DNA of 64,000 nucleotides from Bacteroidales bacterium. GTDB lineage: Bacteria > Bacteroidota > Bacteroidia > Bacteroidales > UBA932. Position 1 is the stretch's first letter. Every line of letters begins with the position of its first letter. The stretch spans positions 13,653-77,652 of the forward strand of contig JAFZQO010000043.1 of NCBI GenBank assembly GCA_017620335.1, in the 5' to 3' direction. The position numbers were made by a program, and so were the translations under genes. Shown here piece by piece: positions 36,964 through 62,575 of the stretch. A model generated the notes under the pieces. The model was not told the DNA's origin, did not search any database, and saw only the letters and a program-made list of their open reading frames with translations.

Positions 36964-38097
36964 ATGAAAAGTATTCTGCCTTTAGCCTTTCTTCTGGTTT
37001 CAATAGTGTTCCCGATGTCCGCCCAGGACTTCAAGGATTTCCGCATTCCCGAGCACATCGTCTCGCCCGAAACCGTCGGCGACACGGTGGTCCTGCGCAT
37101 GGCCGGAGAGTATGCCTCCGAGGTGCGCTTGGAGGGCAGCTGGTTCAGCGGAACCGCCCTGATGCAGAAGCATGAGGGCGTATGGGAGCTGAAGCTTCCC
37201 GGCCTGAAGGCGGATTTCTATACCTACCGGTTCATAGTGGACGGGGTGCCTTCCCTCGACCCTTCCAACCCGATGGTCGTCCGGCAGGGGACCAAATACC
37301 TCAGTTCCTTCATAGTCGAGGGTGCTCCCGGCCCGCGCTACTCCACGGCCTCGCGCAGGGGCGAAGTGTCCTTCGTGTGGTACGAGAGCCGTATCCTGGG
37401 CATGGAGCGCCGCATGGCCGTATATACCCCTTACGGTTACGACCGCGACAAGAAGAAGCAGTATCCGGTACTCTATCTTCTGCACGGGGAGGGGGACGAC
37501 GAGGAGGCCTGGCTCGGCATGGGAAGGGTGGCGCAGGTCCTGGACAATCTCATCCAGCAGGGCCGCGCGGTGCCCATGATAGCCGTCATGCCCAACTGCA
37601 ACCCAATGGAGCAGGCCTCGTTCACGCTCGGCCTGCCCGAGTCCCGTACTTCCCGCACCGGATCCTCCTCGGTGTTCATGAGTAGCTTCATCAACGAGAT
37701 CATACCTTACGTCGAGTCGCACTACCGGGCGGTTCCCAAGAAGGCCGCCAGGGCCGCATGCGGCATCGGGACCGGAGGCACGACGGTGATCAACGCCGCG
37801 GTTATGTACCCCACCCTATTCGACTTCGTCCTGCCCCTGAGCTGCGGAGTTGAGGACAACGGACATCTCGTGGATGATTTCCTGAGGGTGAAGAAGGCCG
37901 GGGTGAAACTGTTCTGGACCGGATGCGGCACCATGGACACGGTGGCCTATGGGCCATCCAGGACCCTGCACGACACCCTTTCCTACATACACCTGGACCA
38001 CACGTTCTTCATGATGACCGGGGGCCGCGACTGGACGGTGTGGAGGCATTTCCTCACCAACTTCGCCCCGATGATATTCAAATACTACACGGACTGA
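36964..38097 (+). CDS. Esterase-fold paralog of 34915..36054 lacking catalytic Ser and His (probable pseudo-enzyme/binding protein)
   Basis: Collinear with the other esterase (E-set domain, YPVLYLLHGEGDDE, PMIAVMPN). However GLSMGG is replaced by GIGTGG, and DGGHIW by TGGRDW. Confidence 0.75.
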   Translation: MKSILPLAFLLVSIVFPMSAQDFKDFRIPEHIVSPETVGDTVVLRMAGEYASEVRLEGSWFSGTALMQKHEGVWELKLPGLKADFYTYRFIVDGVPSLDPSNPMVVRQGTKYLSSFIVEGAPGPRYSTASRRGEVSFVWYESRILGMERRMAVYTPYGYDRDKKKQYPVLYLLHGEGDDEEAWLGMGRVAQVLDNLIQQGRAVPMIAVMPNCNPMEQASFTLGLPESRTSRTGSSSVFMSSFINEIIPYVESHYRAVPKKAARAACGIGTGGTTVINAAVMYPTLFDFVLPLSCGVEDNGHLVDDFLRVKKAGVKLFWTGCGTMDTVAYGPSRTLHDTLSYIHLDHTFFMMTGGRDWTVWRHFLTNFAPMIFKYYTD

Positions 38098-38137
38098 AAA
38101 TGAAAGGCCCCGCTGTCACAGCGGGGCCTTTCATTTT
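38097..38137. terminator. Bidirectional Rho-independent terminator
   Basis: AAAATGAAAGGCCCCGCTG-TCA-CAGCGGGGCCTTTCATTTT, a perfect 19-bp stem with A/T runs on both sides, between convergent genes. Confidence 0.9.
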
Positions 38138-38208
38138 CATAAACCAACTTATTAACCAAAACAGTCTTATTAACGATCGACTTAGCAAATTGCAAGACCT
38201 GTGCCAAA

Positions 38209-52668: not shown

Positions 52669-53886
52669 ATGAAAAAGAGTATATGTCTGTACTTCCAGGT
52701 ACACCAGCCGACAAGACTCAGATTGTACAGGTTCTTCGATATCGGCAAGGATTCGCATTACTATGACGACTTTGCCAACAGGACCATCCTGAAGAGGATC
52801 GCGCAGAAGTGCTACCTCCCCATGAACGAGCTTCTCCTCGAGGCCATCAAGGAGAGCAAGGGGGCCTTCAAGGTCGCCTTCTCCATCACCGGCTCCGCGC
52901 TCGAGCAGTTCGACCGCTACGCCCCCGAGGTGATCGACAGCTTCCGCCGCCTGGCCGAGACCGGCAGCGTCGAGTTCCTCGGCGAGACCTACTACCACTC
53001 CCTCGCCTCTCTGATCTCCCCCGCGGAGTTCAAGCACCAGGTCGAGAAGCACAAGGCCGCCATCGAGGAGTATTTCGGAGTCACCCCCGTCTCGTTCCGC
53101 AACACCGAGCTTATCTATTCCGACGCCATCGGCGACGCCGTGTATGAGCTTGGCTACAAGACCATGCTGACCGAGGGCGCCCGCCACATTATGGGTTGGA
53201 GAAGTCCGAACTATCTTTATACCAATGATTTCCAGCCCAAGCTGAAGCTCCTTCTCAGGAACTACCAGCTTAGCGACGACATCGCCTTCCGTTTCTCCGA
53301 CAGGGGATGGGCCGACTGGCCGCTGACCACCGAGAAGTTCGTCGAGTGGATGAAGAGCGGGGTGGCCGACGGAGGCGACATCATCAACCTCTTCATGGAC
53401 TACGAGACCTTCGGCGAGCACCAGAACGCCCAGAGCGGCATCTTCGACTTCATGAGGGCACTGCCCAAGGCGGTCTTCGCCGACGGCACCTTCGAGTTCG
53501 TCACCCCTGCCCGCGCCGCCCGCAAGCACAAAGCCATCGACGCCCTTTCCGTACCGGAGGCCATCTCCTGGGCGGACGAGGAGCGCGACGTCACCGCATG
53601 GCTCGGCAATGAGCTCCAGAACGACGCCTTCTCCAAGCTCTACGGCCTGACGGAGAAGCTCTCCATCCTCAACGACCCCGTGCTGTGGTCGGATTTCGGA
53701 CACCTCCAGGAGAGCGACCACCTCTATTACATGTGCACGAAGTTCTTCTCCGACGGAGAGGTGCACAAATACTTCAATCCGTATGACACCCCGTACGAGG
53801 CTTTCATCAACTACATGAACGTCCTCAGCGACTTCATTATCCGTACGGACGAGGCATACGCCCTTAATGTGAGCGAAAATAATTGA
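52669..53886 (+). CDS. GH57-family alpha-glucan hydrolase/amylase
   Basis: ATG at 52669 (MKKSICLYFQVHQPTRLRLYRFFDIG). ...HYYDD.AN..., GSVEFLGETYYHSL, FRNTELIY, MDYETFGEH (catalytic region). Confidence 0.8.
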   Translation: MKKSICLYFQVHQPTRLRLYRFFDIGKDSHYYDDFANRTILKRIAQKCYLPMNELLLEAIKESKGAFKVAFSITGSALEQFDRYAPEVIDSFRRLAETGSVEFLGETYYHSLASLISPAEFKHQVEKHKAAIEEYFGVTPVSFRNTELIYSDAIGDAVYELGYKTMLTEGARHIMGWRSPNYLYTNDFQPKLKLLLRNYQLSDDIAFRFSDRGWADWPLTTEKFVEWMKSGVADGGDIINLFMDYETFGEHQNAQSGIFDFMRALPKAVFADGTFEFVTPARAARKHKAIDALSVPEAISWADEERDVTAWLGNELQNDAFSKLYGLTEKLSILNDPVLWSDFGHLQESDHLYYMCTKFFSDGEVHKYFNPYDTPYEAFINYMNVLSDFIIRTDEAYALNVSENN

Positions 53887-56800
53887 TGAGCAAGGAATTA
53901 CTGAGCCCCGACTACCTTTTTGAAGTCAGCTGGGAAGTCTGCAACAAGGTAGGTGGCATCTATACCGTGATCTCGACCAAGGCGCTGCACCAGAAGGCGC
54001 GGCTGGGGAGGCATCACATCATGATAGGCCCGGACGTGTGGATGCACACCGCCGGCAATCCCGACTTTCTGGAGGACCAGGCTTTGTACCGCAACTGGAA
54101 GGCGAAGGCGGCCTCCGAGGGCATACGCGTCCGCATCGGACGCTGGAACGTCCCCGGCAAGCCCATAGCCATCCTCGTGGACTACAAGCAGTTCCTCACT
54201 GAACAGGACTCCATCCTCGGGGATTACTGGAGACGCTTCGGCGTGGATTCCCTGTCCGGCAACTGGGACTATAAGGAATCCGCACTGTTCGGCTTTGCTT
54301 CCGGACGTGTCATAGAGAGTTTCTACAAGTTCAACCTCTATTCCACCGACAAGGTGGTGGCGCAGTTCCACGAGTGGCAGACAGGAGCGGGCCTGCTTTA
54401 CATCAAGAAAGCAGGCATCCCCGTCGCCACGGTCTTCACCACCCATGCGACGATGATAGGCCGCTGCATCTGCGGCAACAACCTCCCGCTTTACAAGCAT
54501 CTGGAGGAGTATAACGGTGACGAGATGGCCCGGCGTTTCGGCGTCGTGGCGCGTCACTCTCTTGAGAAGATGTCCGCCCGCAACGCCGACGTCTTCACTA
54601 CCGTCAGCGAGATAACCGCGCGCGAGTGCAGGCAGTTCCACGGACGTCCGGTGGACATTGTAACCCCGAACGGTTTCGAGAACAGCTTCACACCCGCCAC
54701 GGATGAGGAGTGGATGGAGAAGCGGGCCGCAGCCCGCGCATGCCTGGCCGGTGTGGCGTCGGCCATGTCAGGCACCGAGGTGCCGGACGACGCCGTGTTC
54801 GTCGGCATAGGAGGGCGCTACGAGTACCGCAACAAGGGCATAGACGTCTTCATCGAGGCGCTGTCCAGGCTGCGCGACGCTGACCTGGGCGGGCGCGAGG
54901 TCCATGCCTTCATCCTGATCCCGAGCGGACACAACGGCCCTGACCGTTCCCTCATGCAGAAGCTTGCTTCGGGCAAGGGCGACTACACCACCCAGGTGTC
55001 GCATGCCCTGATGAATCCCGAGTGGGACACTATCACACGCCGTTTCGACGAGCTGCACCTCAACAATTTCCCCAAGGACAAGGTGAAGGTGTACTTCGTC
55101 CCCTCGTACCTCAACGGCAGCGACGGCATATTCAACATGTCGTACTACGACCTCCTCGCCGGTCTGGACGCCACCATCTTCCCCTCGTACTACGAGCCGT
55201 GGGGATATACCCCGCTTGAGAGCCTCGCTTTCAGGGTGCCCACCCTCACAACCTCGCTCGCCGGATTCGGCAAGTGGGTTCGTGACTATTACGGCAAGGA
55301 GCATCCCGGCATCGCCATCGTCGACAGGGATGACGACAATTACTTCGAGGTGGTCGACGCGGTAGTCGCCCGCATGAAGGAGATCGCCGGCCTCGACGAG
55401 GAAGGGAAGGTCCGTTACAGGGAGTCCGCCAGGGATGTCGCCGACATCGCCCTGTGGGAGAATCAGATCAAATATTATAACGAAGCCTATTCGACTGCGA
55501 TCGAAAAGGTCATAGAGCGGATCGGAGAGTATCCGTCCGTCAAAGAAGAAAAGAAAATGCAGTATCATAACTTCAACATCGACGCCCCGTCTTGGAAGAG
55601 CGTCATGGTAACCAGACACCTGCCGGAGAAGCTCTCCGGACTTGAAAGACTTTGCAAGAACCTGTGGTGGTGCTGGAACGACAGCGCTAAGCTTCTGTTC
55701 AAGACAATAGACTCAGATTTGTGGAGCGCGTCAGGACATAACCCCATGTATATCCTCGACCGGGTGAGTATCAAGCGTTTCAACCAGCTTGCCTCGGATG
55801 AGGCCTTCCTCGCCCAGCTCGACGGGGTCATGGCCGAGTTTGACGCATATATGGCCGCAAAGGAGGAGAGGACCGACCCTTCCGTGGCGTACTTCTGCAT
55901 GGAGTACGGCCTTGACACGTCGCTCAAGATCTATTCCGGAGGCCTCGGCATCCTCGCCGGCGACTATCTGAAAGAGACCAGCGACATGAACGTCAACCTC
56001 GTCGCGGTCGGTTTCCTTTACCGCTACGGATATTTCACCCAGAAGCTCACCGCATACGGCGATCAGGTGGCGGAGTACGAGCCCCAGGACTTCCTGAAGA
56101 TCCCCGCCCAGCCTGTCCTTGACGAGGATGGCAACTGGAAGACCGCTACCATGGCCTTCCCGGGACGCAACGTCGTCGCCCGTATATGGAAGGTGGCCGT
56201 CGGCCGCACCGACCTCTACCTTCTCGACACCGACTGGGAGGCCAACCTTCCCGAGGACCGCTCCATCACCCACCAGCTTTATGGCGGTGACTGGGAGAAC
56301 CGCCTGAAGCAGGAGGTCCTGCTCGGCATCGGCGGTATCCGCGCCCTCCGTGCCCTTGGCATCGACGCCCAGGTGTATCACTGCAACGAAGGTCACGCCG
56401 CTTTCATCGGCGTCGAGCGTTTGCGCGAGTACATCGAGCACGACAACCTCGAGTTCGCTGAGGCGATGGAGGTCGTCCGCGCATCGTCCCTCTTCACGAC
56501 GCATACCCCTGTCCCCGCAGGACACGATGCGTTCGAGGAAGGTCTGATCCGCAAGTACCTCGGCCATTATCCGGCACGCCTGAAGATCGACTGGACCACT
56601 TTCGTCGGCCTGGGCAAGGTCAACGCCACCAACCCCGCCGAGAAGTTCTCCATGAGCGTCCTTGCCGCCAACATCTCGCAGAACGTCAACGGCGTGTCCA
56701 TGCTGCACGGCAAGGTCAGCCAGGACATCTTCGCGCGCATGTATCCTGGTTATCTCCCGGAGGAGCTGCACGTGAGCTATGTCACCAACGGTGTGCATTA

Positions 56801-58121
56801 TCCGACCTGGGCCGCCAGGGAGTGGAAGGAGCTGCACGCCAAGGTATTCGGTCCCGAGTTCAAGACCCATCACTATGACAAGAAGTGCTTCGACGGAGTG
56901 TACGAACTCTCGGACGAGCAGGTCTGGAATGTGCGCAAGAAGCTCAAGGGCAATCTCGTGAACACCATCAAGCGCCGCCTGTCCGACCCGATGCAGACCG
57001 TGCATTATTCTCCCCGTCAGATAGTTACGATCAAGGAGACGCTGCGCGACGACGTGCTGACCATCGGATTCGCCCGCCGTTTCGCGACCTACAAGCGCGC
57101 GACCCTGCTCTTCACCGACCTGAACAGGCTCGACGCCATCGTGAACAATCCCCAGCGTCCGGTGCAGTTCATCTTCGCCGGCAAGGCCCATCCCGCCGAC
57201 AAGGCCGGACAGGACCTGATCAAGCAGATCGTCGAGATCTCCAAGCAGGACCGCTTCATCGGAAAGATCATCTTCGTGCCCGGTTATGACATCACGCTCG
57301 CGAAGCGCATGGTCCAGGGCGTGGACGTGTGGCTCAACAACCCCACCCGTCCCCAGGAGGCTTCCGGCACTTCCGGAGAGAAGGCTTCGATGAACGGCGT
57401 CATGCATTTCTCGGTGCTCGACGGATGGTGGGTCGAGGGTTACAAGGAGGGCGCCGGCTGGGCGCTTCCCCAGGAGCGTACCTATGATGACCAGGGATTC
57501 CAGAACGAGCTCGATTCGGCGACGATCTACAACATCCTCGAGAACGAGATCGTGCCCGCGTACTACGATATAGACAAGCAGACCGGCATGTCCACACGCT
57601 GGATCGGCTTCATAAAGAACACCATCGCGAAGGTGGCGTGCAACTTCACCACGAACCGCATGCTCACCGATTACATGGACCAGTACTATCTGCCTCAGTC
57701 CAAGAGGGCAGAGACGCTCCTTGCCGACGACTACAAGGTCGCGCGCGAGATCGCGGCGTGGAAGAAGCACATCAGCCGCCAGTGGCAGAACCTCGAAGTG
57801 GTATCCGTCACCCAGCCGGAGGCTTCCTATACGCTTTCGGGCAGCTCGCTGATGAACATCGAGGTGGTTCTGAACCTTGGTGACATCCTCCCCGAGGAGA
57901 TAGGCGTGGAGGTGCTCTTCGTGACTTCCGACCGCAAGGGAAGGCTCCACATCCAGGAGAAGTGCGAGTTCTCGCTCGTCGAGTGCAACGACGGCGTGGC
58001 GAAGTTCCAGGCTTCCATCCTTCCCGAGCGTACCGGCATGTACCAGGTGGCGACGCGTATCTATCCGAAGAACGCGCTCCTGCCGCACAGGCAGGACTTC
58101 GCCCTCGTGAGATGGCTGTAG
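53886..58121 (+). CDS. Fusion protein: eukaryote-type (GT3-like) glycogen synthase (aa ~1-555) + alpha-glucan phosphorylase (GT35, aa ~560-1411)
   Basis: One uninterrupted frame. N-terminus [55 protein letters not shown] (GT3 glycogen synthase motifs). After [11 protein letters not shown] come [57 protein letters not shown] (the pyridoxal-Lys region, here written [14 protein letters not shown]) of glucan phosphorylases. The start ATG overlaps the GH57 TGA (TGATG). Confidence 0.8.
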   Translation: [1411 protein letters not shown]

Positions 58122-59113
58122 TAGCTACAGGATTCTTCGACGGTGTCCATCTGGGGCACCGTCTCGTGATCGACACTCTGCTCCGTGCCGCGCATGAGCG
58201 CGGGGAGCAGAGTGTGATCGTCACGTTCTGGCCCCATCCGCGCACGGTGCTTCAGAAGGACGCGCGCGAGCTGCGGCTGCTGAGCTCGCTTCAGGAGAAG
58301 CGGGCGATGCTGTCGGAGCTGGGCGTGGACCGGGTCGAGGTCGTGCCTTTCTCGCGGGAGTTCCGCTCGATGACGGCGGAGCAGTATCTGCGCGACTTCG
58401 TCAAGGGGCGGCTCGGCGGCACGGCCATCGTGCTGGGGTACGACAACCGCATGGGATCGGACGGGCTTCCGCACGACGCCATCGTGCCGCTCGCCCAGTC
58501 CCTCGGTCTTGAGGTCGTTGAATGTGACCCTGTGCTGGGGGAGTATTGCCCTGAAAATTTGTGCCACCCTCGGCAACATAAGAGGGAGGGGCCCATCGAA
58601 GATGGGAGGGGTCCTGCGGAGCAGGACAATTTTCAGGGCAATACTCCCCCGGCACAGGGCCCTGCAATCTCTTCGACGAAGATAAGGGCGGCGCTGGAGA
58701 GGGGGGACGTCGTGGCGGCGGAGGCGATGCTCGGGTACCGGTACGGGCTGCATGGGGTCGTGGTGGCCGGGAACCGGCTGGGCCGGACCCTCGGCTACCC
58801 GACCGCGAACATGCAGCTGTACGAGCCGCTGAAGCTCGTCCCGGGGAACGGAGTGTACCTTGTGGAGGTGGAGACCCTCGGGGGGCATTACTACGGGATG
58901 ACCAATATCGGCGTTCGGCCGACGGTGTCCGGCGCAGGGACGCTAACCATCGAGACGCACATCCTGGATTTCGACGAACTCATCTACGGACTGGACATCC
59001 GCCTGCGCTTCATTGAGAAGATCCGCGATGAGCGGCGTTTCGGGTCGCTTGACGGGCTGAAGGCGCAATTGTCGGCCGACGAGGCGGTTTGCAGGGCCAT
59101 GTTGGCAAAATAA
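58112..59113 (+). CDS. ribF: Bifunctional riboflavin kinase/FMN adenylyltransferase, carrying a 44-codon in-frame insertion
   Basis: ATG at 58112 (MAVVATGFFDGVHLGH), overlapping the upstream stop by 10 nt. ...TFWPHP, ISSTKIR, GNRLGRTLGYPTAN, GVYLV, GMTNIG.RPT, IETHILDF..LYG, F..KIRDERRF.S...L..QL. The extra segment GEYCPEN...TPPAQG precedes ISST. Confidence 0.9.
   Translation: MAVVATGFFDGVHLGHRLVIDTLLRAAHERGEQSVIVTFWPHPRTVLQKDARELRLLSSLQEKRAMLSELGVDRVEVVPFSREFRSMTAEQYLRDFVKGRLGGTAIVLGYDNRMGSDGLPHDAIVPLAQSLGLEVVECDPVLGEYCPENLCHPRQHKREGPIEDGRGPAEQDNFQGNTPPAQGPAISSTKIRAALERGDVVAAEAMLGYRYGLHGVVVAGNRLGRTLGYPTANMQLYEPLKLVPGNGVYLVEVETLGGHYYGMTNIGVRPTVSGAGTLTIETHILDFDELIYGLDIRLRFIEKIRDERRFGSLDGLKAQLSADEAVCRAMLAK
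58528..58659. repeat. 132-nt palindromic, multi-hairpin element (MITE/RPE-like) inside the ribF reading frame
   Basis: Arms 58528-58559 and 58628-58659 are complementary at 31/32 positions. The 68-nt core holds the small hairpins CCCATC-GAA-GATGGG (58592-58606) and GTCCTGC-GGA-GCAGGAC (58611-58627), plus CCCTC...GAGGG. Length is exactly 44 codons. CCCTG occurs at the left end and again directly after the right arm. Confidence 0.85.
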
Positions 59114-61224: not shown

Positions 61225-61280
61225 CCTCGCCCACCCGGGCCCGTCCCTTGTCATTCCGAGCGAAGCGAAGGAATCTTAAC

Positions 61281-61430
61281 GGGAACAGAAACGCCATTTC
61301 TGTTCCCGTTTTGTGTTATTTCGGTCATTTGGGAATGAAAACGCGTTTTTCATTCCCGTTTCACGTTTTTTGGGCTGTTTGGGAATGAAATCGCCATTTT
61401 CATTCCCATTTTGCTTTTTCGGCTGGATGG
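61281..61430 (+). repeat. Three tandem 50-bp units, each a 27-nt hairpin plus T-rich tail
   Basis: Units start at 61281, 61331 and 61381. They read GGGAACAGAAA-cgcca-TTTCTGTTCCC, GGGAATGAAAA-cgcg-TTTTTCATTCCC and GGGAATGAAA-tcgcca-TTTTCATTCCC, each followed by (G/A)TTT(T/C)..TTTT. Unit 1 carries compensatory TG->CA / CA->TG changes that keep the stem. Confidence 0.9.
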
Positions 61431-61433
61431 CTA

Positions 61434-62357
61434 TCAGGTAGTAGGGATAATGCCTGCGAGAATCGCCAGGTCGATCTTGAGCATCCGCGCAATCTGCTTG
61501 CTGCTGGCGTTATACTCATAATGCAATTTCCTGGCGAGTTCTATTTTCGCTTGTGTCGGAAGAATAGATGGTTTTGCTGCGCCATACTGGTCACGGGCTA
61601 TTCCTACCAGGATGGAGTACAGGTCGTCATCGGTGTAATAGAGACTTTCTCCTATTTCTTCTGCGACTGTTTTCATTCCTTCCATGTTCCTGGAGACTAG
61701 CGAGAAATAGTGTTTGGCATTCCTGAAAAGGGCTTCCGCTGATGCGATGTCGCAGAAGGCTTGGGGCGGGATGATGCCGTCAATGAACGGCTTGCCGGCA
61801 AATCCGTCGAGTTTATGTGTGCGGTAATTGTCACGGATGACCGTGCAGGGAATAGTATCCCTGCAATCCCTGAACCTTGCCTTTGCATCGGGATTGAAGA
61901 AACATCTGTTGGCGCCCCAGGGATAGTTGAAGGGGGTGTAATCCATGTTGACAAGGAATCCGTTGCGGTTGTTGTAGGCTATGACATTGCGAAGGTCCTG
62001 CAGGCCTTCGACGGGCCTGAGCTTGCAATCCCATCCGTCAAGGCTCCCGGCACGGTCTTTCGCTTTCAGGTAATTGCCCAGATACTTTTTCAGCATGGCG
62101 AACAGGCGGATGATGTCCCCCTCCGGGCCGGCAAGCGTTATGTGAAGATGATTGCTCATCCATTGGAAAGTCAGGATCCGGATTGAAGGGAAATTGAATG
62201 CGCAAATAGCCAAAAGGGTCATCCCCGCCTGGAAGTCCACGATGTCCGTCATGATTACCGGATGGTTCTCCGGCGTATACAGGTGCCAGCATGGTCCCAG
62301 TTGCCTGAATACAAACTCGCAGCGACTCTCTTCCTGAGCAAATGTCCTTTTCATCAT
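61434..62357 (-). CDS. HUH/Y1 tyrosine transposase homolog (IS200/RAYT-like, COG1943-type) with C-terminal HTH domain
   Basis: ATG at 62357 (MMKRTF...). HUH motif in WMSNHLHITL. A Tyr motif in RNVIAYNNRNGFLV (compare YIHxNPVxAGLV of RAYTs). The C-terminal ...ELARKLHYEYNASSKQIARMLKIDLAIL resembles a DnaA-C-like HTH. Confidence 0.65.
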   Translation of the reverse strand: MMKRTFAQEESRCEFVFRQLGPCWHLYTPENHPVIMTDIVDFQAGMTLLAICAFNFPSIRILTFQWMSNHLHITLAGPEGDIIRLFAMLKKYLGNYLKAKDRAGSLDGWDCKLRPVEGLQDLRNVIAYNNRNGFLVNMDYTPFNYPWGANRCFFNPDAKARFRDCRDTIPCTVIRDNYRTHKLDGFAGKPFIDGIIPPQAFCDIASAEALFRNAKHYFSLVSRNMEGMKTVAEEIGESLYYTDDDLYSILVGIARDQYGAAKPSILPTQAKIELARKLHYEYNASSKQIARMLKIDLAILAGIIPTT

Positions 62358-62486
62358 TCTTTTTTTCGCAAGATGGGAAATCCGTGTATAACGGAAAGAC
62401 AAAAACATATAATTCGGGTGGTTTACAGATGTTTTTATATGATTTCGGATAAATCGATCGGTTATACGCTACTATCTCCGGTTGAC

Positions 62487-62575
62487 GGGAATGAAAATGG
62501 CGGTTTCATTCCCGTTTCACGTTTTTTTGCCCATTTGGGAATGAAAACGCGTTTTTCATTCCCGTTTTGTTTTTG
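62487..62575 (+). repeat. Two further copies of the 50-bp hairpin unit
   Basis: GGGAATGAAA-atggcgg-TTTCATTCCC at 62487-62513. GGGAATGAAAA-cgcg-TTTTTCATTCCC at 62537-62563 is identical to the unit at 61331. Same GTTTCACGTTTTTT tail. Confidence 0.9.

Follow-up and report, generated by a model that had tools for sequence, protein, structure and literature searches.

A palindrome in frame within ribF is probably one copy of a dispersed, RPE-like repeat family of rumen and gut Bacteroidales

Why does ribF, an essential gene, carry a palindrome of 132 nt inside its reading frame? We asked this question for a stretch of 64,000 nucleotides from a Bacteroidales bacterium (GenBank assembly GCA_017620335.1, contig JAFZQO010000043.1, positions 13,653 to 77,652; hereafter the window, whose own numbering is used throughout). 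Our answer is that the palindrome at 58528-58659 is probably one copy of a dispersed, non-coding family of palindromic repeats of rumen and gut Bacteroidales that resembles the Rickettsia palindromic elements (RPE). It draws on the family and its distribution, on presence and absence of the element at orthologous sites, on the preservation of reading frames, on structure and covariation, on a strand asymmetry, on flips, and on a difference in evolutionary rate between core and arms. A preliminary description, made from the sequence of the window alone, had already proposed an RPE-like element in frame; this proposal can now be set on at least 118 loci, on presence and absence within ribF, and on at least ten unrelated housekeeping hosts confirmed by Pfam. 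The host gene, the element and its parts are the following:

58112-59113, + strand: ribF (bifunctional riboflavin kinase / FMN adenylyltransferase), 333 amino acids (aa) including the insert
58528-58659, + strand: palindromic element, 132 nt, limits set by the inverted repeat; the + strand is the G-rich, better-folding strand
58538-58663, + strand: most likely inserted DNA, 126 nt or 42 codons (G143-P184), boundary uncertain by a few nt
58528-58559, + strand: left arm of helix P1; its outer 10 nt (58528-58537, CCCTGTGCTG) overlap the host codons P-V-L
58560-58578, + strand: hairpin P2, TGTGCC / loop ACCCTC / GGCA(A)CA
58579-58591, + strand: linker TAA, the pentamer GAGGG (predicted to pair with the P2 loop CCCTC, 58567-58571) and the first G-tract AGGGG
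58592-58606, + strand: hairpin P3, CCCATC-GAA-GATGGG, variable in sequence and length across the family
58611-58627, + strand: hairpin P4, GTCCTGC-GGA-GCAGGAC, with a C-GNA-G triloop; the second G-tract GGGAGGGG (58604-58611) precedes it
58628-58659, + strand: right arm of helix P1, 31/32 positions of which pair with the left arm

The two arms are 32 nt long, enclose 68 nt and are 97% complementary (31/32), the lone mismatch being U-G when read on the + strand, exactly as first reported. The palindrome is the longest inverted repeat of its kind within the window, where neither the arm nor its inner 19 nt has a second match with up to three mismatches; shuffled sequences never produced an arm match (0/100). 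Folded as RNA, the 132-mer reaches -93.5 kcal/mol, against -49.1 ± 4.2 kcal/mol in shuffles (z -10.6), and folded as DNA it reaches -54.5 kcal/mol (z -11.4). The - strand folds slightly worse (-87.8 kcal/mol as RNA, -50.7 as DNA). The predicted fold is a single long stem closing three hairpins. Two of them, P3 and P4, are those drawn in the preliminary description; the first is better drawn as TGTGCC-ACCCTC-GGCA(A)CA, and the CCCTC/GAGGG pairing previously given as its stem becomes a contact between the loop and a downstream pentamer. The element spans 44 codons without a stop in the ribF frame, and of the six frames four (two per strand) are free of stops, which agrees with the earlier reading of this frame and of two opposite-strand frames.

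Is this structure unique to the window? We searched one genome per species with a single exact core pattern (GCCACCCTCGGCNNCRTAAGAGG), and gathered at least 118 loci; the 23 nt of the pattern do not vary among them, because the loci were selected for them. All genomes compared were metagenome-assembled genomes (MAGs), and the element boundaries are approximate. The matches listed come from 85 assemblies, 25 of them with two to four loci each. With two exceptions, the titles of the records refer to uncultured Bacteroidales or Bacteroidia (among them Candidatus Cryptobacteroides and "Rikenellaceae"), and the sources are mostly rumen (cattle, goat, sheep, buffalo, deer, yak), with a few from human gut or digesters. 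One of the two exceptional titles reads only "bacterium" and the other names Firmicutes. The latter record ('Firmicutes bacterium TM09-10', CAVJMH010000005.1, our L098) carries an element that is otherwise specific to Bacteroidales, and its bin may be mislabelled or contaminated. The fetched DNA gave 130 matches in profile searches and 108 matches with the covariance model R1. The window element scores 108.3 bits with R1 (rank 8 of 108) and is the sole match in the window, with R1 as well as with nhmmer.

The family is apparently undescribed, as the preliminary description had supposed for this kind of genome. A search of Rfam 15 with the region, at E-values up to 10, returned only chance matches to microRNAs and long non-coding RNAs (the best one, mir-326, at 22.4 bits for a threshold of 66), and 15 loci gave no match at the Rfam gathering thresholds. 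Known ribozymes (HDV-like, pistol, twister) were rejected, as they fitted neither by eye nor through Rfam. We found no match by BLAST against phage and plasmid collections or by a scan of IMG/VR with the core pattern, and our literature search returned no description of such a repeat family in Bacteroidales; the phylum of this order goes unmentioned in a 2024 review of prokaryotic MITEs (transposable elements of the miniature inverted-repeat type). No longer variant with an open reading frame (ORF) was present among the at least 118 loci. At the protein level, an exhaustive phmmer search with the 44-aa insert returned a single irrelevant repetitive protein. A peptide search with three concatenated translated frames, which was not a census, gave three matches and added RecR and TilS to the hosts. 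The host clade and the architecture thus appear to be new, and the kind of element is already known. Four features of the architecture appear new: a conserved junction core, copy-specific arms, a strand-specific fold and frequent flips.

We derived the anatomy of the family from an alignment of 80 copies and from the covariance-model alignment of 108 copies. The conserved core has about 65 nt (range approximately 60-75) and forms a four-way junction. It consists, in this order, of P2 (yGT(G/A)GCC, loop ACCCTC, GGC..Cr), TAA, GAGGG, a G-tract, P3, the G-tract GGGAGGGG, and P4. The closing arms are 20-50 nt long and their sequence is copy-specific, except for some 6-8 semi-conserved base pairs beside the core. 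The exact sequence of the window's arms was found in no other copy, which lends no support to the conserved terminal repeats of MITE type that the preliminary description implied. In the 108-copy alignment, 92.2% of the cells are paired; shuffles reach 62.3%, and sliding the partners gives 36-47%. Compensatory changes are present in 34 of the 41 pairs.

Individual helices show the same trend. The closing pair of P2 is T-A in 56 copies, C-G in 50 and a non-pair in none, and its optional inner pair also covaries (G with C, A with T). A sister subfamily, which was not selected by the search pattern, has the loop GCCCGT, the linker TGA and the pentamer ACGGG, so that CCCGT/ACGGG is a double compensatory change. 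These data support base pairing between the P2 loop and the pentamer that follows downstream. As the linker has only 3 nt, this pairing and the P2 stem may either coexist as a pseudoknot or alternate. In P3, four of six pairs show compensatory changes, and one pair occurs as AU (51), GU (22) and UA (15); the G-U pair can form solely on the G-rich strand. Of the 101 P4 hairpins, 62 are closed by a C-GNA-G loop, and this type accounts for 90 of the 179 loops of P3 and P4 together, with all four bases at N. The DNA mini-hairpin d(GCGNAGC) is a classic example of extraordinary stability. Two variants of the anatomy stand out. In eight copies (L004, L017, L018, L026, L049, L064, L070, L076) P3 holds an extra branched insert of about 45 nt, which extends the core to 100-117 nt and looks like a nested module. 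At two loci, inside DnaX (L005, 4561-4861) and inside an FAD-dependent protein (L014, 3002-3265), a copy of the sister subfamily lies inverted at 30-60 nt from a standard copy.

Did the element enter ribF, or has this loop always been there? We compared the RibF of the window with its 120 best relatives, all from uncultured Bacteroidales, whose lengths range from 291 to 403 aa. The alleles can be classed as follows:

Empty site (L121, L123): 291 aa, with E-C-(S/D)-A-V-G directly before T-I-S-S-T-K
Filled, core in the orientation of the window (L126, L037): PENLCHPRQHKR
Filled, core reverse-complemented (L120, L125): PPSYVAEGGT
Filled, third frame (L127, L003, L047): GPLPLMLPRVAQ
Two or three stacked copies or fragments: P0012 (384 aa), P0040 (403 aa)
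Short remnants of 5-9 residues: P0010/L119, P0033/L128, P0070

The filled alleles have 332-335 aa and use three frames of the element and both orientations; the reading frame is intact in every allele compared. One further orthologue (P0027) additionally has a serine/glutamine-rich tandem peptide repeat at the insertion site. The orthologues thus share no universal 44-aa segment, and copies abound elsewhere; a lineage-specific loop that is palindromic by chance, or an assembly artefact, is practically out of the question, since the same core occurs at at least 118 other loci, close relatives have empty sites, an identical protein is encoded on 7 contigs from several sources and shuffle tests exclude chance, even though the insert does lie in a variable region of RibF and palindromes do cause assembly artefacts (as at the end of contig L129, below).

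The alleles also redraw the limits of the insertion. The four codons after E-C in the empty alleles are homologous to D-P-V-L in the window, and the insert is therefore most likely the 126 nt at 58538-58663 rather than the 132 nt of the palindrome first put forward. The window codons GAC CCT GTG CTG, which lie under the outer 10 bp of the stem, differ from the homologous codons of all other alleles and complement the right end of the element, ACAGGGyCCT, an end also found in L125. We infer from this pattern that templated copying rewrote these host codons in the lineage of the window, extending the stem by 10 bp into ribF. The CCCTG pentamer repeated at both ends had been proposed as a target-site duplication. 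It is instead a by-product of the local 10-nt palindrome CAGGGCCCTG at the right end (58655-58664), and no such repeat occurs in the other ribF alleles, whose filled and empty forms come from genomes too divergent to place the junctions exactly. An origin of the arms by copying of the flanks, or of another part of the window, is rejected: the empty alleles have no arm-like sequence and the window holds no second match. We also set aside a translational bypass between the two CCT codons, because the frame is open throughout and other alleles have no matching codons.

Three alleles occur on flanks that are 97-100% identical: the window, L125 (the other core subtype, reversed) and L119 (an 18-nt remnant). 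The divergence between the window and L125 reaches about 50 nt into ribF on either side, and looks like the replacement of one allele by another through recombination. L119 is best read, on this shared background, as a deletion that left 18 nt.

The position of the insert in the protein fits a permissive loop. RibF matches the Pfam domains FAD_syn (3e-34) and Flavokinase (1.8e-38), and the FAD_syn match ends at residue 141, where the insert starts. Residues 119-183 face only 24 residues of the solved structure 3op1_A, and the match picks up again at the ISST motif, so that the insert sits between two stretches that can be aligned to solved structures. A protein identical to that of the window (P0001) is encoded on 7 contigs of public assemblies from several sources. 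The frame is kept across alleles of differing length and phase, which argues that the insert is translated rather than removed; its peptide is exemplified by GEYCPENLCHPR. In an AlphaFold2 model built from a shallow alignment (30 sequences), the predicted local distance difference test score (pLDDT) has a mean of 57 and falls to 25-29 in the insert, which has no secondary structure. This model is too poor to tell more than that the insert is unstructured, and the insert would probably add about 42 disordered residues to the enzyme.

The element is not restricted to ribF. Out of 115 copies, 34 lie inside ORFs that remain open for at least 300 nt on either side, and seven copies, all of whose frames are closed, are clearly intergenic. 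Pfam confirmed ten hosts: a YgiQ-type radical SAM protein, DnaX, an HI0933-like flavoprotein, RNase R, UvrD, a MiaB-like protein, TldD, PolA, RluA and TilS. The element lies inside the RNB domain of RNase R and inside the UvrD_C domain of UvrD. Further hosts are RecR (P0121) and a second TilS (P0123), which has the element in the opposite orientation. The frame with the TAA or TGA linker is closed in all 107 copies studied, and the remaining five are each open in 43-67% of the copies; all five are used. Elements have on average 2.86 open frames, against 1.86 in shuffles.

How old are these insertions, and how do they change? In pooled pairs of orthologous copies the flanks are 82.5% identical and the arms 80.7% (p = 0.43, no difference). 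Hypermutable arms are therefore ruled out, as orthologous arms diverge at the rate of the flanks. The part of the core outside the search pattern is 92.2% identical (p = 1.2e-6) and so evolves at about half the rate of the flanks. Paralogues of the same assembly show another pattern: their cores are often 87-100% identical and their arms are at background similarity. The identity of distal arms between copies of the same genome is 0.44-0.75, for a background of about 0.55, even when the cores are identical. We read these comparisons as suggesting that many insertions are old, and that cores are constrained and may be partly homogenised within genomes. The arms would drift and yet stay complementary, probably by hairpin-templated repair.

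Flips are frequent. Seven of 15 orthologous groups hold both orientations (ribF, uvrD, polA, L014/L114, L018/L111, L026/L116 and L080/L081), and TilS is an additional case outside these groups. The elements of the window and of L120 match at 128 of 136 positions only after one is flipped; their cores are then identical, and the ribF flanks are 88-91% identical. Flipping either the core or the whole element of the window in silico gives a full-length RibF of 333 aa both ways. The exact flipped RibF of the window was absent from a collection of about 15 billion proteins; the other two members of its cluster share the orientation of the window. When we scanned metagenomes for the window's arm we obtained a single contig, with a flipped ribF allele, which is uninformative on heterogeneity within samples. 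The end of this contig (L129, JGI Ga0310690_10251327, 1900-2014) lies within the ribF element, where the right flank is repeated in inverted form, a fold-back assembly artefact. The fold-back is due to the palindrome, and members of the family are therefore likely to break or distort metagenome assemblies.

The two strands of the element are not equivalent. Among the mismatches of the arms, G.T outnumbers A.C (63 vs 30, p = 8e-4) and G.A outnumbers C.T (48 vs 6). Of 107 copies, 101 have the G-rich strand as the more stable one when RNA parameters are used, and 98 when DNA parameters are used. Within long ORFs, copies occur in both orientations relative to the host (14 vs 20). There is no association with local GC skew either (49 vs 50), and we rejected a link between orientation and the direction of replication. 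A strand-specific fold in copies that lie both ways round in host genes indicates that the constraint comes from a process of the element itself and not from host mRNAs. Hence, the other option of the preliminary description, an embedded structured RNA acting in the mRNA of its host, is unlikely. The simplest reading of the strand-specific fold is a single-stranded intermediate, of DNA or RNA.

From these observations, the history of the locus may have been as follows. The element would have landed in a permissive RibF loop, immediately upstream of the conserved motif ISSTKIR. It would have been retained only where it preserved the reading frame, and would therefore be translated, here as about 42 extra residues. 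Its fold would be selected on the G-rich strand, most likely for copying or recombination through a single-stranded intermediate and not for a role in host mRNAs. Hairpin-templated repair would keep the drifting arms complementary, and the same process could have extended the stem into the codons of ribF. Recombination between the arms would repeatedly invert the element and recode the inserted peptide, and copies would also be replaced by other subtypes, stacked, or deleted down to short remnants. The routes of inversion and movement sketched here are those that we find most plausible, and the element is presumably selfish rather than useful.

Several points weigh against this account. No transposase, target-site duplication or conserved termini were found in the family, and mobility is read from distribution and polymorphism. 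Paralogues with identical cores between unrelated, yet complementary, arms are not predicted by simple copy-and-paste. One would not expect decaying selfish DNA to have a core more conserved than its coding flanks, and this leaves some scope for a function. That the insert is translated is read from frame preservation only, the AlphaFold2 model being poor overall. Finally, the pair counts of the core come from an alignment fitted to the model itself; independent pairwise alignments of the arms, in which 2901 of 3073 pairs (94%) are Watson-Crick, agree with the counts fitted to the model.

The slow core invites a bolder reading, which we put forward tentatively and think rather improbable: a new class of elements defined by structure, where the junction core is an active single-stranded module (substrate or partner of a recombinase, or catalytic) under purifying selection, which spreads or converts between copy-specific arms and acts as a portable, recoding inversion cassette in essential genes of rumen Bacteroidales. 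We think it unlikely that the core is first of all a functional structured RNA or single-stranded DNA motif (a protein-binding site, a recombination substrate, or ribozyme-like) selected at each locus, with spread being secondary. The covariation of four helices and of the loop-to-downstream pairing, the selection of structure on a single strand, the strong enrichment in C-GNA-G triloops, and the 92% identity in either orientation, against 82% in coding flanks, all speak for such a function. Yet the copies have no conserved genomic context or neighbour gene; they are scattered over unrelated genes and intergenic DNA, both ways round with respect to transcription, and match no Rfam family, self-cleaving ribozymes included. 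Presence and absence, remnants and stacking at one site resemble parasitic turnover, and the conservation of the core could stem from conversion by active copies.

Might the locus be a programmed switch? Inverted repeats do flank a segment open in frame both ways round, and both orientations exist at seven of 15 orthologous sites, including ribF, uvrD and polA, as well as in tilS. Recoding invertons within genes are documented in Bacteroides (PMC10028968), and a site-specific invertase could flip the core between the 32-nt arms within a population, to give two isoforms of RibF and of the other hosts. However, every flip observed is between genomes and none within one sample, and the exact flipped RibF is missing from the proteins searched. 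The arms vary from copy to copy, with no common invertase site evident, and none of the neighbours of ribF is a recombinase gene. Long perfect inverted repeats, moreover, also invert without a dedicated enzyme. We thus hold a dedicated switch to be very unlikely.

In its behaviour, the family seems closest to the RPEs and to the intragenic repetitive extragenic palindromes (REPs). RPEs, especially RPE-1, are dispersed palindromes of about 100-150 bp, many of which lie in frame in unrelated housekeeping genes that remain intact, and are translated as additional peptide segments (Ogata et al. 2000, summarised by PMC10969869 and by PMC3733652). They have no known transposase of their own, and occur in intergenic as well as intragenic copies (PMC10969869, PMC3733652). 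The size of our element (132 nt), its stable hairpin, and the many copies in frame in intact, unrelated genes, alongside intergenic ones, are all RPE-like. In contrast, the host of RPEs is an obligate intracellular alphaproteobacterium, whereas ours are free-living gut and rumen Bacteroidales of another phylum. RPEs also differ from a family with a conserved internal four-way-junction core, a copy-specific stem, frequent flips and a core that evolves slower than its flanks. The likeness is one of behaviour, drawn from descriptions and not from sequence; all matches are from Bacteroidales, and we do not file the family among the RPEs.

REPs and their REPIN dimers belong to the GTAG and CGTC superfamilies. 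They measure 20-40 nt, have an unpaired GTAG or CGTC head and a sequence conserved within the genome, and are mobilised by RAYT tyrosine transposases (PMC3733652). CGTC REPs have stems of 8-9 bp and loops of 4-5 nt; intragenic REPs favour genes of replication and repair, dimers fold into larger hairpins, and a mechanism based on hairpins of single-stranded DNA is the leading model for their movement (PMC3733652). Our family also consists of structured repeats with G-T pairs in their stems, and its hosts include dnaX, polA, uvrD and recR. However, it falls outside the definition of REPs: GTAG is present in only 16 of 107 P2 stems (GTAGCC in the 5' strand), where it is paired, and P4 has stems of 5-7 bp with loops of 3 nt. 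MITEs (Correia/NEMIS, ERIC, RUP, Nezha and others) are likewise small, non-autonomous, dispersed and foldable, and some are fused in frame with host ORFs (PMC10969869). By definition they have conserved terminal inverted repeats, common with those of a parent insertion sequence, and target-site duplications (PMC10969869), whereas the termini of our family are copy-specific, no duplication was seen and no parent element is known.

Invertons share with our element the inverted repeats within genes, the recoding that preserves the frame, and the order Bacteroidales itself (Chanin et al., PMC10028968). L120 and L125 are natural flipped alleles of ribF. Yet Bacteroides invertons are single-locus, are seen in mixed states inside clonal cultures and presumably require an invertase (PMC10028968), whereas in our family it is a dispersed repeat that inverts, and all documented inversions are between genomes. 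Given how frequently our elements invert, some intragenic invertons of Bacteroidales may be repeat elements rather than dedicated switches.

The attC sites of integrons and the attP site of the CTX phage are folded single-stranded DNA sites of about 60-140 nt, in which structure is conserved over the sequence of the stem and one strand is functional. In attC, conserved outer core sites surround a variable centre; these sites lie at cassette boundaries and require the integron integrase. Such features of attC were not found in our family, and the likeness serves only as an analogy for a possible mechanism.

If confirmed, this family would be a second large and independent case of palindromic DNA in frame in essential genes, here in free-living and abundant bacteria of the gut and rumen, and the phenomenon would cease to look peculiar to reduced intracellular genomes. 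It can serve as a natural experiment to learn which loops of a protein put up with 40-110 extra residues. Some of the differences in length that housekeeping proteins show among MAGs would also be explained by it, and it would cause breaks in contigs and fold-back artefacts. The reversed architecture (conserved core, copy-specific arms), the strand-specific fold and the slow core call for an explanation in terms of the enzyme and intermediate involved, and the covariance model and the listed loci make this question of mechanism testable.

The neighbours of ribF are a glycogen synthase/phosphorylase fusion gene, greA, a HIT-family gene and an AhpC/TSA-family gene, and this order (fusion gene, ribF, greA, HIT, AhpC/TSA) is kept in relatives. 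The fusion gene (53883-58121) encodes 1412 aa, a glycogen synthase fused to an alpha-glucan phosphorylase, and the start codon of ribF overlaps its 3' end by 10 nt. The window also contains other hairpins. A different family of short hairpin repeats lies on either side of the ORF at 61434-62408 (- strand), at 61280-61410 and 62485-62565, one flank having three units and the other two; the unit is GGGAAyrGAAAyGCswTTTywkTTCCC followed by a T-rich spacer. A perfect hairpin with arms of 22 nt and a loop of 1 nt (TGAAAATGAAAGGCCCCGCTGT / ACAGCGGGGCCTTTCATTTTCA) at 38095-38139 is probably a terminator.

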